Positions 2,260 to 10,191 of a stretch of DNA of 64,000 nucleotides are shown here, in pieces (within the stretch, counting starts at the first letter, position 1; every line of letters starts with the position of its first letter). Below the pieces are notes generated by a model. That model saw nothing but the letters and a program-made list of their open reading frames with translations, made no database searches and had not been told where the DNA came from. Position numbers and translations under genes: made by a program. The DNA is taken from positions 304,523 through 368,522 of the forward strand of contig CBDCWP010000039.1 in assembly GCA_965223505.1 (NCBI GenBank), written 5' to 3'. Origin of the DNA: Planctomycetota bacterium. GTDB taxonomy: Bacteria; Planctomycetota; PLA2; JAEUHO01.

Positions 2260-3010
2260 GATTGAGCGGCAGCTTTCGACGACCGTCTTTCCCGCCGCCG
2301 TTCGTGGGCAGCCACGCCCCTGCTGAGTCCGGCGTGTGCTTTCGCAAGGCCACCGAATTTCCGGGTCCGTACCTATTCGTCCTCTCCTGATCGGTCAGAT
2401 GGGATGTCACTTACTAGGGACCGCTCTGTTGTCGTTGCTCGAACGGCCGACTTGCGCTTGGTGCGTCAGCCGAAGAACGCCCGGGGAACAGTTGTGCCCC
2501 CCGGGCGAGTGCGGGAAACCACCTGTCGAACGTTCGTTCTGGGGGATGTCCGAGGTAGTACCAGCGGCCACCTCTCATCATAGGAGCGCGCGCGAGTACC
2601 ACTACCGAGTCGAAGGCCACACATTGCGGATCGCATTCGTCCGGAAGTTCGACACCGCTCATGCGCTGATCGGTATTGCTTCGGTCGTCGTCGCTCATCG
2701 ATACACTCGACTCGTCGCGCCAGTGGTCTCTCGAACTCGTTCGAGCTTCCCAGGTGTTTGTGTTGCAACTTCTCTTGGAGAAACGGCCGCTGGCGCGGCA
2801 CTTGCTTAGGACTTCCATTCCGAATTCGCTGTTGACGAACCTACTGGACTGGCTAGGTTCGTAGTTGCAACACAAACACCGCTTGTGGGGAGCAGAGACG
2901 TTCGAGGGGGACCAGGCTTCTCTTCGCGGCGCTTCTTCCGCCAGCGGCCAAAAAGGGCACTCCTTGTGTCCATTAGATGAACGACGCCGCGAATTCGCGC
3001 ATCGGGTGCG
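2260..3010 (+). ncRNA. Candidate large structured non-coding RNA or leader
   Basis: No convincing ORF; 18-bp perfect inverted repeat 2753-2770/2863-2880 plus many nested helices whose G-U pairs work on the + strand; boundaries approximate. Confidence 0.5.
2832..2859 (+). promoter_or_regulatory. Possible sigma70 promoter TTGACG-N16-TAGGTT overlapped by a 9-bp inverted repeat
   Basis: Motif match; ACGAACCTA 2835-2843 / TAGGTTCGT 2854-2862. Confidence 0.35.
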
Positions 3011-3028
3011 TTGGAGGAGAACGACGCC

Positions 3029-3361
3029 ATGCTTGTTGGAACCACGATGTACAAGATGGACGGGACGCCGTACTACAGTCCCGAGTTCCCCCGGGGAGGT
3101 CTTGCGGCGACGTTTGCCGTTGACGTGACCCAGATCGCCGGCACTCCGTCGGTTGTAATCACTGTCGCGCATCGAAACGCCGAAGACACGTCGTTCACAG
3201 ACGCGGGTGCGTTCTCAGCGATCACTGCCGCGGGCGACTACCAAAAGGACCTAACTGGTCTCAAGGAGATCGTTCGCTTCCGATACGACTTTGATGCCAG
3301 CGACAACGCGTCGGACGGGATGCACTTCCTTATGCAGGCGCCCAGCTGGCGTCCGTACTAG
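3029..3361 (+). CDS. Small beta-rich (jelly-roll-like) protein, paralog 1 (110 aa)
   Basis: GGAGGAG RBS; shares YYSPEFPRGGLAATF, HRN.EDT, TGLKE.VR and QAPSWRPY with the next ORF. Confidence 0.85.
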   Translation: MLVGTTMYKMDGTPYYSPEFPRGGLAATFAVDVTQIAGTPSVVITVAHRNAEDTSFTDAGAFSAITAAGDYQKDLTGLKEIVRFRYDFDASDNASDGMHFLMQAPSWRPY

Positions 3362-3386
3362 CAGCTTCCAAGAAGGGAGATGACCC

Positions 3387-3722
3387 ATGATTGTGGGCAC
3401 CACGATTCAGCGCCTTGACGGCAATACGTACTACAGCCCTGAGTTTCCGAGGGGAGGACTGGCGGCGACGTTTGTCGTTGACGTGACGCAGTTGGTCCTG
3501 TCGAGCGGGTCGCTCAGCGTGATCGTTGAGCATCGCAATGAGGAGGATACGACTTGGTCGACGGCGGGCACCTTCACTGCCATCACGGCGGTGGGCGCAG
3601 CAAGTCTCGACGTGACGGGCCTGAAGGAGGTTGTTCGCCTAGCTTTCGGCTTCGTCACGACAACGACCACGACCGATGCTGCGCACTTGTTGGTCCAGGC
3701 TCCGAGTTGGAGGCCGTACTAG
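3387..3722 (+). CDS. Small beta-rich (jelly-roll-like) protein, paralog 2 (111 aa)
   Basis: AAGGGAG RBS; clear paralog of 3029-3361. Confidence 0.85.
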   Translation: MIVGTTIQRLDGNTYYSPEFPRGGLAATFVVDVTQLVLSSGSLSVIVEHRNEEDTTWSTAGTFTAITAVGAASLDVTGLKEVVRLAFGFVTTTTTTDAAHLLVQAPSWRPY

Positions 3723-3747
3723 CCCAGGCGCGCTAGAGGAGGACCTA

Positions 3748-5024
3748 ATGGCGTGTTGCGCCCAATGCGATGGCGGGCTCCAGGCTCACGAACACCAGGC
3801 GGCTGCTCTTCGATGGGGCGTGTCGTTCGCCGACGCAGGGCCCTCTGCTGACCCGTTCTTCAGGGCGGCGTCAGTCGGGGACCTTGTAGCGAAGGCAGTG
3901 CCGCGAGGGGGCAACTCCTGGCCCCGCCGGGATGTTCATAGCGGGCTGATGACCTACTACTTGGACTACTCCGACGGCGGGTCGGGAACCACCTCTCCGA
4001 ATTCGGCCCGTCTTGACGAGTTGGGTGAGTTCGCCTGTATGCACGAGAAGAAGATGACGATGAGCTTCCTTGGTTGGACCAAGGGGACGACGAAGAAGAG
4101 CCTTGGGACTTGAAGGACGAGGACAAGCCCGAGGAAGTTGCACAGTGCTGTTGCAAGGTGCAGTACGCCCACATACGGGTCATGAAGAACGAGGAAGAGA
4201 GGGGCTAGTTCCGCCTGTATGCACGAGAAGAAGATGACGATGAGCTTCCTTGGTTGGACCAAGGGGACGACGAAGAAGAGCCTTGGGACTTGAAGGACGA
4301 GGACAAGCCCGAGGAAGTTGCACAGTGCTGTTGCAAGGTGCAGTACGCCCACATACGGGTCATGAAGAACGAGGAAGAGAGGGGCTACGCTCGATCGAGA
4401 TTCAGGGTAAAAGTGAGGATGTCGTACAAGCCAGGCGACGAGAACCCGGACAAGTGCTCTCTCGTCTGGGAGGAGCGTACTTCGAGGACGTACCACGTCC
4501 CGCCTCGTACCACTGATGGTGCCATCACGGCGACTCCTCCGGAGGACGAGATTGAGGTGCCCCAGGGGCCGACGCAGCCGGGCGCAATCGAGCCCGACCT
4601 TACTCCTGAGTGGGTCGATGTGAGCAAGCAGGCGCGCAAGACACCCGGATGGAAGAACCCTGGCGCTGGCGTTGCAGACGAGCCCAGCTGGAATGATCGA
4701 CTGCCGACGAGCGGCTGCCCCGAGCGCGTCATTTGGCGGAAACTTGACGAGCCGGGCGCGCCAAAGAAGGGGTGGCCGCGAACGCTTCAGGTGAAGATCA
4801 CGATCAAGAATGGGGCAAGCTGCGCCGCGTCGACGGTCCTGAAGTTCCGGCAGCACATTAACGGTCAGGGCCGGGTCACGACTGACCCATCGCATACGAG
4901 TGGAAATTGGCGAAACCCAGGCGTCATTTCTGTCGAGCCGGGCACCGAACAGCCCGACCCCGAGGGCTGGCTGGAGCCAAAGGCGGGGGACAAGGATGCG
5001 AAACCGAAGGATGACGGGAAGTAG
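3748..5024 (+). pseudogene. Cys-rich/acidic protein split by a tandem duplication and 1-bp indel (365 aa if repaired)
   Basis: GAGGAGG RBS and MACCAQC start; removing 4028-4206 joins ORF 3748 in frame to ORF 4254-5024. Confidence 0.7.
4032..4387 (+). repeat. Tandem duplication, period 180 bp (176-bp identical copies 4032-4207 and 4212-4387)
   Basis: Direct sequence identity. Confidence 0.95.
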
Positions 5025-6495: not shown

Positions 6496-6520
6496 CCCCG
6501 AGAGATAGCGCTTGTGTCCC

Positions 6521-7627
6521 CTACGCGTTAGGCCGCGTCCGCCAAGCGGAAACTAGTGTTGATAAGCGCCCTCTCCGGAACTGTAGATAGCCGTGCTTGC
6601 AGAGCGTTCTCTGCGTCGCGCTGCGGTCGATTGACGCGCGCTCGATGCACGTCGGCATTCTAGCGTTTCTTTCCTTGAATGTCTTGAGCGCGGCATCGGT
6701 CTCGAACTTCAGATCGTGCTCAAATGCCGTTCTCTCTTGCCTCGTGATCGGCCGGCGGTCTTCAAGAGCCTCCGCCGGCGTCGGCCCAGTCGCACCCCAT
6801 GGCCTCGCCGTCGTATTCGCAACGAGCAAGGCGTCGTCGAGGTTTTGAGGTAGCCAGATGCGGGGATGTCCTTCCATCTGCGCGATGTGCTGTACACGTC
6901 GCTTGAAGTTCCCGCCGCTGCGCTCGCACGCGCCGTTGTAGGCGGGCGTGTACGGCGGCGACGTGAGTGGCGTGATGCCGTGCTCCTCGAGCAACGCGGC
7001 CGTCTGTTCCGAGCGAAACGCGCCCGCGTTGTCCTTCTTCAGAATCAGCGGCGCTCCGAACAGCGTGATCAAAGCGAGCAGCGCCGCGCACACAGTCTTC
7101 GTCTTCTCGCCCCGGCAGGCTACGGCCGCCAGCTGCGCTCCGCTTCCGAGATCGCGAACCAGGAACAGTCGATCCTTGCCCTGCCAGAGGCCAGCCTTGG
7201 GCCTGGTGAAGTCCGCCGCCCACACCGCCCCGGAACGAACCCACTCTAGCCGCTTGCGATACCAGCGCCATCGACGCAGCGCCACCCGTAGCAGGCGCCT
7301 CTTCATCTCTGAAAGCACGCGATACGGTACGTCGCTGAACATGCCCCGAAGTACGGCCACACCCGAGAACGGCCCCAGCTTGAACATCGCATGCAGCACC
7401 TTCTGCCGCTTCGCTCGTGGTACGTCATCGGCCTTGCGGCCACGCTTCTCGTACACCGGCTTGCCCTGGCGAACGCGAAGCTCCCAACGCCTGATCGTTC
7501 GCTCGGCCACGCCAAGGACTCGCGCCAGGTAGGCGCGTGTTTCCTTGTCCCAGCCACTTCGCCGCATCACCTCCACGGCCTGAAGCCGGAACTTCACCTG
7601 CTCCTCGTACGACATCTTCTCGCTCAT
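6521..7627 (-). CDS. DDE (rve / integrase core) transposase 2 with N-terminal HTH (368 aa)
   Basis: WAADFT, LKKDNAGAF, YNGACER; GGAGG RBS; ATGA overlap with the upstream HTH gene. Confidence 0.88.
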   Translation of the reverse strand: MSEKMSYEEQVKFRLQAVEVMRRSGWDKETRAYLARVLGVAERTIRRWELRVRQGKPVYEKRGRKADDVPRAKRQKVLHAMFKLGPFSGVAVLRGMFSDVPYRVLSEMKRRLLRVALRRWRWYRKRLEWVRSGAVWAADFTRPKAGLWQGKDRLFLVRDLGSGAQLAAVACRGEKTKTVCAALLALITLFGAPLILKKDNAGAFRSEQTAALLEEHGITPLTSPPYTPAYNGACERSGGNFKRRVQHIAQMEGHPRIWLPQNLDDALLVANTTARPWGATGPTPAEALEDRRPITRQERTAFEHDLKFETDAALKTFKERNARMPTCIERASIDRSATQRTLCKHGYLQFRRGRLSTLVSAWRTRPNA

Positions 7628-8019
7628 CGCTGCCTCCAACCTTCCTGGTGCGCCACATGCAGCGCGTGCCGAACCCGCGGCGCCTCGCCAAGCCCGCAAT
7701 CGAAGATGTCCACCTGCGTGCGCACCACGCGCACTCGGTGCCGTAGCTTCGACACCTCGCGCTCAAGCTCATGATCGTCGTCAGGCAGCACGGCGCGCGG
7801 CCGGCCACAAGCGCCGCCTTCAAGCGCCTCAACGCCGGCCTGCAAGAACCTACGTCGAAGATCCTGGAAGCGCGTTCGGCCGATGCCCAAACGCTCGCAC
7901 GCATCGCCAACGCTCCACTGCCGGCCAAGCGTGAGCAGAATCACCTTCACGCGCTCACGCGCCGTCTCGCTCGCCGACGTGCGCGCCACCAGCGTCGGCA
8001 TCTCGCTTCGCCGTCCCAT
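7624..8019 (-). CDS. HTH domain protein (131 aa)
   Basis: SVGDACERLGIGRTRF HTH, GRPR motif, coiled coil; AAGGA RBS. Confidence 0.8.
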   Translation of the reverse strand: MGRRSEMPTLVARTSASETARERVKVILLTLGRQWSVGDACERLGIGRTRFQDLRRRFLQAGVEALEGGACGRPRAVLPDDDHELEREVSKLRHRVRVVRTQVDIFDCGLGEAPRVRHALHVAHQEGWRQR

Positions 8020-8461
8020 CGCCGTTTCCTTTCTCTTCAAGGCCCGTGCGCAGCGTCTTCAGCACCGTCTTGCCGCGGTGGCCGCGCTTGGCGCTGCGGC
8101 CCTTCTTCGAGGATGCCTGCTTGCGCCCGCCGCGCGCCAGCCCCAGGCTTCGATTGGCCGCACGAAGCAGGGACTGGTGCCGCCGAAGCTCCTTCTCCAG
8201 GTGCTGTTTCTCGGCCTTCAGCGCCAATATCTCGCGCTGCGGCGTCTTCTGGATGCCGCGCTTCTTCGGCTCCATCGCCCGCAGCATGCCCTTCAAAGCA
8301 CGGCCTTCGAGCTGGTAGTAGCGCGAGAGCGACACGCCCATCTGCTCAGCCGCCTCGCTCGTGCCGATCTCGCCTGAGAGCGCTTCCAATATCACTGCCA
8401 CGTGCTTGCGCGACGTCTTGCTCGCCGTGATCGTCGTCACGTTCTTCTTCTTCGTAGGCAT
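7955..8461 (-). CDS. HTH plus coiled-coil basic protein (168 aa)
   Basis: TSEAAEQMGVSLSRYY HTH; TAATG coupling to the transposase 1 stop. Confidence 0.8.
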   Translation of the reverse strand: MPTKKKNVTTITASKTSRKHVAVILEALSGEIGTSEAAEQMGVSLSRYYQLEGRALKGMLRAMEPKKRGIQKTPQREILALKAEKQHLEKELRRHQSLLRAANRSLGLARGGRKQASSKKGRSAKRGHRGKTVLKTLRTGLEEKGNGDGTAKRDADAGGAHVGERDGA

Positions 8462-9822
8462 TACTCCTGCTCCTTCGTGGGCGCCTCGTCAAGGGCCTTG
8501 AGCTCCTCGAGCACGTCGTCGAGCACGCTCTCGCCCGGCCCCTCCTTGGCCGCATCCTTGCGCTTGCCCGATGCCCGCAAGTCGACCTCTTCGCGAACGC
8601 CGTCCTTGTCCGTCAACAGCACCTTGTCGCCCTCGGCGTGAAGCGACACCGGCTCGTCGCCGATTCGACCCGCCAGGTACAAGGGCTTGCGCGGCTCACC
8701 GTGAAGCGCCAACTCCTTGGCGTTCGTTGCAACCGCCTCCTGCAGGGCGCTGCGCACGCTCTGCGAGGCTTCGAAGAATCGGTCCGCTGGAACCAGGCCG
8801 CCAATGCCCTGGTGGGTGCGCTGGAAGTTGTAGAAGCCGATGAAGTGGGCAATGCGCGTCTTGGCGTCCTCCATGCCGCGGAAGATCGCTCCGTCGATCA
8901 GCTCGCGAAACAGCGTGCCCCAGAAACGCTCGATCTTGCCAAGCGTCTGCGGCCGCCTCGGCCTGGCCACGATCTGCTTGATGCCGCGCTTCTCGCAAAG
9001 CTTGCGAAACGAGCTCTTCCCGCGCCAGGTCTGATACTGCGCGCCGTTGTCGGTCAAAATCTCCTCGGGCGCGCCGAAGTTCGCGATCGCCTGCTCGAAC
9101 GTCTCCCGAACCATCGCACCCGACGCCGATGCGTGAAGCCCGAAGCCCACGATGAAACGCGAGAAGTCGTCCAGGTAGCAAACCAGGTGCACGCGCCGAC
9201 GCTCGCGCTTCAGGAGAAACGTGAATAGATCCGTTTGCCAAAGCTCGTTCGGTCGCTTGCGCTCGAATCGCTTCACCTTGGGCGGGTTGCGCGCCGGCGC
9301 AACCGCCTCCACCTCGTAGCCCGCTTCCTTCAGCACGCGCTGAACCGCGCCGCCTGAAACCGAGATACCCTCCGTTCGGATCAGCATGTCGTGGATCCGA
9401 TCCTGGCCCCAGTCCGGATGCGCGTCCTTCATCATCAGGATCGCACGGCGCGCCGGCTCGGGCAGCCCGCTGCCCTTCATGCCGCGCTTGTGCCCGAGCA
9501 AACCGGCGGGGCCCTCCTCCTCGAACTTGCGACGCCACGCGTACAGCGACGCCGTGCTCACGCCGATCAGCGGCGCGAACTCCGTGGCCGCAAGCTCGCT
9601 GCGAAACCAACAGTCAAGCGCCAACAGGCGCTGCTCGCCCGTGAACTCCGCGCTACGCGATGCGTCGCTTCGCACCGTTCGAGCACGACGGCTGCGTGTG
9701 CCGCGGGGCACGTAGCCGCTCACGGCCCGCTTCCTCCGCTCGGCTCCGGCGACTTCGTCGCCTCCGCCTCCCTTCGGAAGCGGGCCGTCCAACCTCTCGG
9801 GCGCCTTCGTATCGTCGTTCAT
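8461..9822 (-). CDS. IS481-family DDE transposase 1 (453 aa)
   Basis: HTH, WQTD, LDDFSRF, LTDNG, GKIERFW, FYNFQRTH. Confidence 0.93.
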   Translation of the reverse strand: MNDDTKAPERLDGPLPKGGGGDEVAGAERRKRAVSGYVPRGTRSRRARTVRSDASRSAEFTGEQRLLALDCWFRSELAATEFAPLIGVSTASLYAWRRKFEEEGPAGLLGHKRGMKGSGLPEPARRAILMMKDAHPDWGQDRIHDMLIRTEGISVSGGAVQRVLKEAGYEVEAVAPARNPPKVKRFERKRPNELWQTDLFTFLLKRERRRVHLVCYLDDFSRFIVGFGLHASASGAMVRETFEQAIANFGAPEEILTDNGAQYQTWRGKSSFRKLCEKRGIKQIVARPRRPQTLGKIERFWGTLFRELIDGAIFRGMEDAKTRIAHFIGFYNFQRTHQGIGGLVPADRFFEASQSVRSALQEAVATNAKELALHGEPRKPLYLAGRIGDEPVSLHAEGDKVLLTDKDGVREEVDLRASGKRKDAAKEGPGESVLDDVLEELKALDEAPTKEQE

Positions 9823-9876
9823 CTCTCTTCCTTTCCCTGGCACATAGGCCAGCCAAAGGAGAGAGCCTTATCAACA

Positions 9877-10191
9877 CCGGTTTCCTGCCCTTCGCAGGTC
9901 ACCTATTCGTCGAGGGAGACAGCTGCGAATGTTGCCGTCGGTAGCACGGACGTATCCCAAACGGCCTTTGTTCAAGAAGGCGACTGGGATGCGCTTGATC
10001 AGCTCCTGGCCGCCCACGACATCCCGCGGGACGACGTAGCTGACCTCAAGAAGGCGGTTGAAGCGGAGCCCGATTCGAATGCCCTTGGTCCGCGGGTGGG
10101 TGGATGGCTCGCAAAGATGGCGAACAAGGCCTCCGAAACAGCTGTCGCGGCGGTCACGAAGGGCGTGCTCGGGTACTACGGCATCGGCTAG
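9877..10191 (+). pseudogene. C-terminal remnant resembling AbiTii-domain proteins
   Basis: NVAVGS..GD..L..GPRVGGWLAKMANKA..GYYG tail recognised from memory; no start codon, cut by the transposon end. Confidence 0.55.

Follow-up and report, generated by a model that had tools for sequence, protein, structure and literature searches.

Most insertion sequences manage with one DDE enzyme. Elements of the IS481 family carry a single transposase open reading frame (ORF) and no other genes, and they duplicate 4–15 bp of their target. What the multi-protein transposons IS21, Mu, Tn7 and Tn5053 have in addition is an ATPase rather than a second DDE enzyme. To our knowledge, Tn7 is the one well-studied bacterial transposon with a transposase of two different catalytic proteins; its TnsA has a restriction-enzyme fold, not a DDE fold, and Tn7 needs the ATPase TnsC together with target selectors and leaves 5-bp duplications. 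Tn554 and the "recombinase in trio" elements encode tandem sets of two or three paralogous recombinases; Tn554 inserts without target duplication. Here we describe an insertion sequence from a Planctomycetota bacterium that encodes two different DDE transposases, Tnp1 and Tnp2, and two small helix-turn-helix (HTH) proteins, H168 and H131, within one pair of inverted repeats. It occupies positions 6513–9921 of a 64,000-nucleotide stretch of contig CBDCWP010000039.1 (positions 304,523–368,522; assembly GCA_965223505.1). We call this whole stretch the window and use its coordinates throughout.

Results

Copies of the element in its own genome define its extent. The window's assembly holds five full copies that are 98.8–100% identical, with identical ends and unrelated flanks, and their comparison gives an insertion sequence of 3,409 bp on the minus strand (6513–9921, tips TGTG...ACA). 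Every full copy starts TGTGTCCCC at 6513 and finishes GGGAGACA at 9921. Contigs from four public runs of one study break at 6512/6513 and at 9921, and depth within the element is about five times that of the flanks. None of the seven public runs listed is recorded as RNA. An earlier annotation made from the letters alone, the sequence-only reading, had bounded the element at 6521–9876 and had proposed looking for further copies to define its ends; the copies exist and place both ends further out. Partial copies in the same assembly comprise a right-hand piece of 1,277 bp, a left-hand piece of 789 bp and a 42-bp fragment. The window thus holds an autonomous insertion sequence in an intact and recently active copy, whose four genes form a single mobile unit, not a chance nesting.

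The four genes fill the element head to tail. All are ORFs on the minus strand, in the order Tnp1 (8461–9822, 453 aa from ATG), H168 (7955–8461, 168 aa), H131 (7624–8019, 131 aa) and Tnp2 (6521–7627, 368 aa). One base is common to the Tnp1 stop and the H168 start (TAATG), the reading frames of H168 and H131 run over each other for 65 nt, and the H131 stop overlaps the Tnp2 start as ATGA, with GGAGG 6 nt before the Tnp2 ATG. Overlapping stop and start codons recur in relatives, and judged by these junctions the four genes are one translationally coupled operon. Pfam and NCBIfam searches found no ATPase domain in the four proteins. The sequence-only reading had described the operon with its TAATG and ATGA junctions and protein lengths, D-D-E residues in both enzymes and the lack of an AAA+ ATPase; the ORF coordinates and domain searches agree with it on each of these points. 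A programmed frameshift joining H168 to H131 was considered and rejected: the reading frame of H131 is +1, and more distant relatives no longer have the overlap. Near the Tnp2 end, a promoter-like match (AAGACA-17-TAGAAT, 6657–6685, minus strand) faces out of the element; it is weak (one match versus 0.2 expected) and is not used here as evidence.

Tnp1 and Tnp2 each have the RNase H-like core with D, D and E that marks the rve superfamily. Tnp1 is an IS481-like DDE transposase (D198, D258, E298) laid out as two HTH modules, an rve core, a small C-terminal beta domain and an acidic tail. It matches Pfam rve at 75.8, rve_3 at 49.5 and HTH_32 at 42.7 bits (rve cut-off 32.6), and its best NCBIfam match is IS481 (NF033577), at 207.2 bits over profile positions 2–284, below the cut-off of 224. 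Its AlphaFold model, with a mean predicted local distance difference test (pLDDT) score of 70.5, has an IS481-type body extended by the small C-terminal beta domain and by a terminal helix. Tnp2 is a more divergent rve DDE protein (D139, D199, E235) with an N-terminal HTH, an rve core and a helical C-terminus. It reaches 43.3 bits with Pfam rve, and its best NCBIfam matches, IS3 at 68.6 and IS481 at 64.8 bits, are far below their cut-offs. The best solved folds for its AlphaFold model (pLDDT 84.8) are retroviral integrases, namely those of prototype foamy virus, Rous sarcoma virus and human immunodeficiency virus (E 7e-11 and weaker). Profile searches also matched integrase chains.

The two enzymes are related to each other and look functional. 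Profile alignment with hhalign (97.8%, 265 columns, 21% identity) superimposes their DDE residues within the same HTH-rve layout, which identifies Tnp1 and Tnp2 as paralogues. The catalytic triad is invariant in 30 of 30 Tnp1 sequences and in 36 of 36 Tnp2 sequences, the latter with as little as 23% identity to the window copy. Differences between the genome's copies, given as synonymous to non-synonymous, number 19:10 in Tnp2, 12:0 in Tnp1 and 8:2 in H168; judged by such comparisons, purifying selection between copies acts on all four genes. Across 20 elements, the pairwise distances of Tnp1 and Tnp2 co-vary (Mantel r = 0.765; none of 2,000 permutations reaches it). The element is a member of a large branch within the IS481/IS3 superfamily of rve DDE elements, a branch with two paralogous DDE genes for each pair of long two-box inverted repeats.

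The two small proteins form a second pair of relatives. H168 consists of an HTH, a coiled coil and a basic tail and is conserved in relatives; H131 consists of an HTH and a coiled coil. Pfam HTH_28 scores 35.2 bits in H131 and 19.5 bits, below the cut-off, in H168, which has no NCBIfam match. Aligned by hhalign (99.1%), the two share the HTH, a conserved "EP.P.GR" stretch and the coiled coil, and on this profile evidence they are paralogues. The idea that H168 and H131 are copies of the transposase N-termini found no significant support (hhalign probability 1% with Tnp1, 49% with Tnp2). The adaptor role assigned to them in the sequence-only reading is a guess.

Each end of the element is a two-box structure. 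The terminal inverted repeats are about 64 bp long and imperfect, each with a tip box and an inner box that begins 36 bp from the tip. The left repeat, upstream of Tnp1 (9857–9921, minus strand), has the tip box TGTCTCCCTCGACG at 9908–9921, in minus-strand reading, and the inner box GGAAACCGGTGTTGATAAGGCTCTCTCC at 9857–9885. The right repeat, at the Tnp2 end (6513–6576, plus strand), has the tip box TGTGTCCCCTACGCG and the inner box GGAAACTAGTGTTGATAAGCGCCCTCTCC at 6548–6576, and it overlaps the last Tnp2 codons; the Tnp2 stop codon is at 6521–6523, so this inner box lies inside the Tnp2 coding sequence. The tips of the window copy read TGTCTCCC and TGTGTCCC. The repeat shared by the inner boxes, GGAAAC..GTGTTGATAAG, occurs at 6548–6566 and 9867–9885, two window matches where chance predicts 0.07. 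The TGTTGATAAG..CTCTCC inverted repeat of the sequence-only reading is therefore present, not as the sole short pair it was taken for but as the inner box of longer ends. Searches for inverted repeats and patterns found none internally, each box standing once per end.

Relatives keep the same end design, with a tip of the form TGT(G/C)..CCC..CGAAAT followed, about 60 bp in, by an inner box of the form ..GGT.GAG.AAT..CCTCC. In five of them (L013, L033, L039, L044 and L073) the inverted-repeat alignment extends 2–13 bp past the TGT tips. The DNA just outside these five relatives' ends is thus inverted-symmetric; a palindromic target or somewhat longer ends may be the cause.

The pairing of Tnp1 with Tnp2 is conserved across bacteria. 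Searching one-genome-per-species contigs with a profile of Tnp2 relatives gave 61 loci. In 40 of them, down to 29% Tnp2 identity, Tnp2 is preceded on its own strand by a Tnp1 homologue, and H168-like and H131-like genes nearly always stand between the two enzymes. The gene order, whose synteny across genomes the sequence-only reading had marked for checking, is thus kept across phyla; by record title, the hosts include Planctomycetota, Gemmatimonadota, Polyangia and Myxococcales, Methylomirabilota, Acidobacteriota, Victivallales and Pseudomonadota. Among the remaining loci, seven have too little upstream DNA and 14 are without Tnp1. Eight of these 14 are Tnp2 fragments. Two further loci (L022 and L040) and the fragments L053 and L062 are truncated versions of elements that their own genomes also hold in full, and L064 is only 26% identical. 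Two contigs of about 3.6 kb (L010 and L012) were tested as circular assemblies and have no terminal overlap, L012 starting in flanking DNA.

The converse search gave the same picture. In 401 genomes of the window's phylum, Tnp1 occurs at 21 places with at least 54% identity outside this genome, and at 15 of these the same contig and strand have Tnp2 about 1–2.5 kb further downstream; the others comprise five places at contig ends and one broken fragment. More distant Tnp1 homologues (39–45% identity) are paired as well: all six fetched loci have a downstream match to the Tnp2 profile (46–129 bits) with D, D and E. These elements are about 2.9–3.2 kb long, with apparently one small gene between the enzymes, and the two-DDE pairing is therefore older than the four-gene form. 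Among 1.84 billion representatives, 1,088 clusters match the Tnp2 profile at E <= 1e-30; tblastn with Tnp2 found no match in the plasmid collection. The two-DDE element type is real, active and widespread.

Individual relatives vary on this plan. In the distant clade, the Tnp1 homologues (L073-L077, P0245-P0254) are ORFs of 575–870 aa with C-terminal extensions of 150–400 aa that match none of the four profiles; L076 has a weak H168-like match in another frame over its extension. In L078, an IS630-type transposase gene (2826–3953; DDE_3, 75.7 bits) is nested between a truncated H168 and H131.

Natural fusions join the element's proteins to one another. Among the best 150 Tnp2 cluster representatives, seven consist of a full H131 module followed by a full Tnp2, and in-frame fusions of this kind also occur in L036, L037, L043 and three records of one cluster. 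These fusions argue that H131 and Tnp2 work together. A search for longer Tnp1 relatives found a 964-aa protein in which a near-complete Tnp1 precedes a complete Tnp2, with both triads intact and the HTH genes absent (one cluster, two records). As evidence of joint work, it is weaker than the H131-Tnp2 fusions.

The two tips of the element differ. We placed both tips in 26 elements, 21 relatives and five own copies, which are not independent of one another. The tips were located by searching for TGT, so a TGT start in 26 of 26 follows from that selection. The fourth base is G on the Tnp2 side in all 26; on the Tnp1 side it is C in 19, G in five and T in two.

The flanks of the elements show next to no direct repeat. 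None of the 26 elements is flanked by a direct repeat of at least 4 bp: the repeat is 3 bp in one (the window copy, GCT), 2 bp in five and 0–1 bp in 20. Repeats of at least 2 bp, expected in 2.5 elements, are present in six, a number that 63 of 2,000 shuffles attain. The target duplication and empty sites that the sequence-only reading had listed for definition thus did not emerge, neither in these elements nor, for the empty site, in the public-run contigs. The absence of a target duplication is unusual for an IS3/IS481-type element; rearrangements may account for part of it. In cross-pairings of inverted copies, one pair shares AGGT (L005 left, L003 right). A target duplication recovered by such cross-pairing was rejected, as the reciprocal pair has no match. 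A metagenome scan for close Tnp2 relatives, as a source of extra insertion sites, gave one short contig (L080).

The surroundings of some copies point to possible rearrangement. The right end of copy c44b of the two-DDE element adjoins the middle of a multicopy IS256-family element (...GGGAA/CGAGCG; G000:C44:306834 onward, outside the window), whose missing half lies next to no copy of the two-DDE element. This IS256-family element (NF033543, 343 bits) has seven copies identical over the compared stretch and about ten at about 89%, and it is intact in L079 (571–1812); a different IS256 variant, on C7, has its break at this site too, 2 bp further on. Of the five full copies of the two-DDE element, four form two inverted pairs, 12 and 24 kb apart (G000:C26:109776-129095 and G000:C44:275658-306833), and the C26 pair also encloses the 789-bp left-end fragment. 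These inverted pairs and the enclosed fragment suggest local hopping or inversions between copies. Within the window, in ORFs upstream of the element, a 180-bp unit stands twice in exact tandem (4028–4387; 99% match) and doubles a 60-residue stretch of a predicted protein.

Discussion

We favor a reading in which the element is a two-DDE insertion sequence whose enzymes would both be catalytic in one transposition complex, with the labor divided between them. Taken whole, we give this reading a probability of roughly 55%. H131 would work with Tnp2, in a relationship like that of OrfA and OrfB in IS3 elements, and H168 would work with Tnp1. The HTH modules may read the tip box and the inner box, with different modules for the two boxes. 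Labor could be divided by end or by chemical step; we infer a division from the difference between the ends, TGTC on the Tnp1 side and TGTG on the Tnp2 side. Insertion would leave little or no target duplication. The sequence-only reading had proposed a heteromeric transposase in which each subunit handles a different end or step. That idea is plausible and consistent with the comparisons made here, the H131-Tnp2 and Tnp1-Tnp2 fusions and the tip difference being the pointers to it.

A bolder version is tentative, and we would not wager on it. The transposase would be an obligate one of two paralogous DDE enzymes, each with its own HTH partner and its own dedicated end (TGTC or TGTG) or step, and it would join the element to its target with little or no stagger so that no target duplication arises. 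The element would then belong to the first such bacterial family.

Several observations weigh against the reading that both enzymes are catalytic together. The counts reported above are over related elements and are not independent. Tnp2 evolves much faster than Tnp1, with a median identity to the window copy of 32% versus 53% and a mean pairwise distance of 0.64 versus 0.44, and a less constrained accessory role would also fit this divergence. In a few genomes Tnp2-only genes stand flanked by host genes (L027 and L031, a pair in one genome, and L035, which is N-terminally short). Tnp2 can therefore be maintained in the absence of Tnp1, if only as a relic. The Tnp1-Tnp2 fusion, a single cluster without the HTH genes, may be a dead deletion derivative. 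Neither an empty-site joint nor an end-to-end (circle) joint was seen in the contigs of the four public runs, which hold two odd joints, each in a single low-depth contig, and a pattern scan of one metagenome for the circle junction of the two tips gave 0 matches. These negatives favor none of the copy-out-paste-in, cut-and-paste and replicative pathways over the others.

The strongest rival, which we consider unlikely, is that one enzyme, probably Tnp1, transposes the element and that Tnp2 is an accessory: a regulator, an inhibitor, a target-capture factor or a processor of intermediates, and not co-catalytic. One DDE enzyme suffices for most insertion sequences, and the faster divergence of Tnp2, its weak Pfam and NCBIfam scores and the Tnp2-only genes beside host genes all suit such a role. 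A purely regulatory protein, however, need not keep the triad, and the D-D-E of Tnp2 is unbroken in the 36 elements and in all six distant-clade loci. Tnp2 is also under purifying selection between copies, it has the full layout of an HTH-rve transposase, and part of its C-terminal coding sequence doubles as the inner box of the end.

It is more doubtful still that a catalogue already lists the element, for instance ISfinder under a multi-ORF IS481 or ISNCY entry, which would leave its mechanism as the one question. The Tnp2 family, with its 1,088 clusters, is large enough that curators may have met members, and the public names of the proteins are generic ("transposase InsO family protein", "DDE-type integrase/transposase/recombinase"). 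Against this, a full-text literature search, which covered neither ISfinder nor TnCentral, returned no description of an element with two DDE/rve transposases, and "heteromeric transposase" retrieved only Tn7 or Tn7-like elements. Passages of PMC10045372 and PMC9208149 contain nothing on two-DDE elements. Neither Tnp1 nor Tnp2 reaches any NCBIfam model, and the plasmid collection gave no match. The suggestion of an uncatalogued family, made in the sequence-only reading, stands as far as this literature search extends.

That two unrelated insertion sequences were combined by chance nesting or in a recent chimera and now move on their outer ends is very improbable: nesting does occur, as in L078, and the window genome is rich in other insertion sequences, but the copies share their ends, no internal inverted repeats were found and each box stands once per end, the same order recurs at 40 of 61 loci in several phyla, Tnp1 and Tnp2 distances co-vary, the older clade has the same pairing and all testable close Tnp1 relatives have Tnp2.

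The family keeps two active-looking DDE paralogues together over deep divergence and in several phyla. It would therefore offer a natural system for asking how two integrase-type enzymes share ends or strands, how ends are read asymmetrically and why the target duplication is missing. There is also a practical consequence for annotation. Such units of 3–4 kb are now annotated as separate generic transposase genes, and tools that assume one transposase per element split or miss them.

Comparison with known systems

The IS481 family is the closest relative of Tnp1. Its model (NF033577) is the best NCBIfam match of Tnp1, and an HTH_28/HTH_32 head, an rve core and TGT...ACA tips are shared features. 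The element departs from the family in its four genes, its second DDE enzyme, its length of 3.4 kb and its two-box ends of about 64 bp. Tnp1 itself scores below the family cut-off and carries additional conserved parts at its C-terminus, a beta domain and an acidic tail, and none of the 26 elements has the 4–15-bp target duplication that is the IS481 norm.

The IS3 family, exemplified by IS911, offers the nearest likeness for the other half of the operon. H131 followed by Tnp2 resembles OrfA followed by OrfB, the H131-Tnp2 fusions resemble OrfAB, the tips are of the TG...CA kind and IS3 is the best NCBIfam match of Tnp2. Unlike IS3 elements, this one has no frameshift signal or slippery run; H131 and Tnp2 are joined by ATGA, and Tnp2 has its own ribosome-binding site. 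The IS3 model (NF033516, cut-off 160) gives 146.9 bits with Tnp1 and 68.6 with Tnp2. The element further differs in its additional IS481-like enzyme and second small HTH gene, and in having no 3–5-bp duplication.

The multi-protein transposons are more distant. IS21 pairs IstA with the AAA+ ATPase IstB; the element has no ATPase, and scores with the IS21 model are 43.3 and 30.3 bits, where 160 is the cut-off. Tn7, Tn5053 and Mu combine an rve transposase with the ATPase TnsC, TniB or MuB, whereas the element has no match to an ATPase or to a TnsA-type protein. A functional analogy can be drawn with Tn7 all the same: as with TnsA and TnsB, two different catalytic proteins might share the cutting of ends. 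Tn554 and the "recombinase in trio" elements, whose enzymes are tyrosine recombinases and not DDE enzymes, provide in their tandem paralogous recombinases an analogy for the paralogue pairs seen here.

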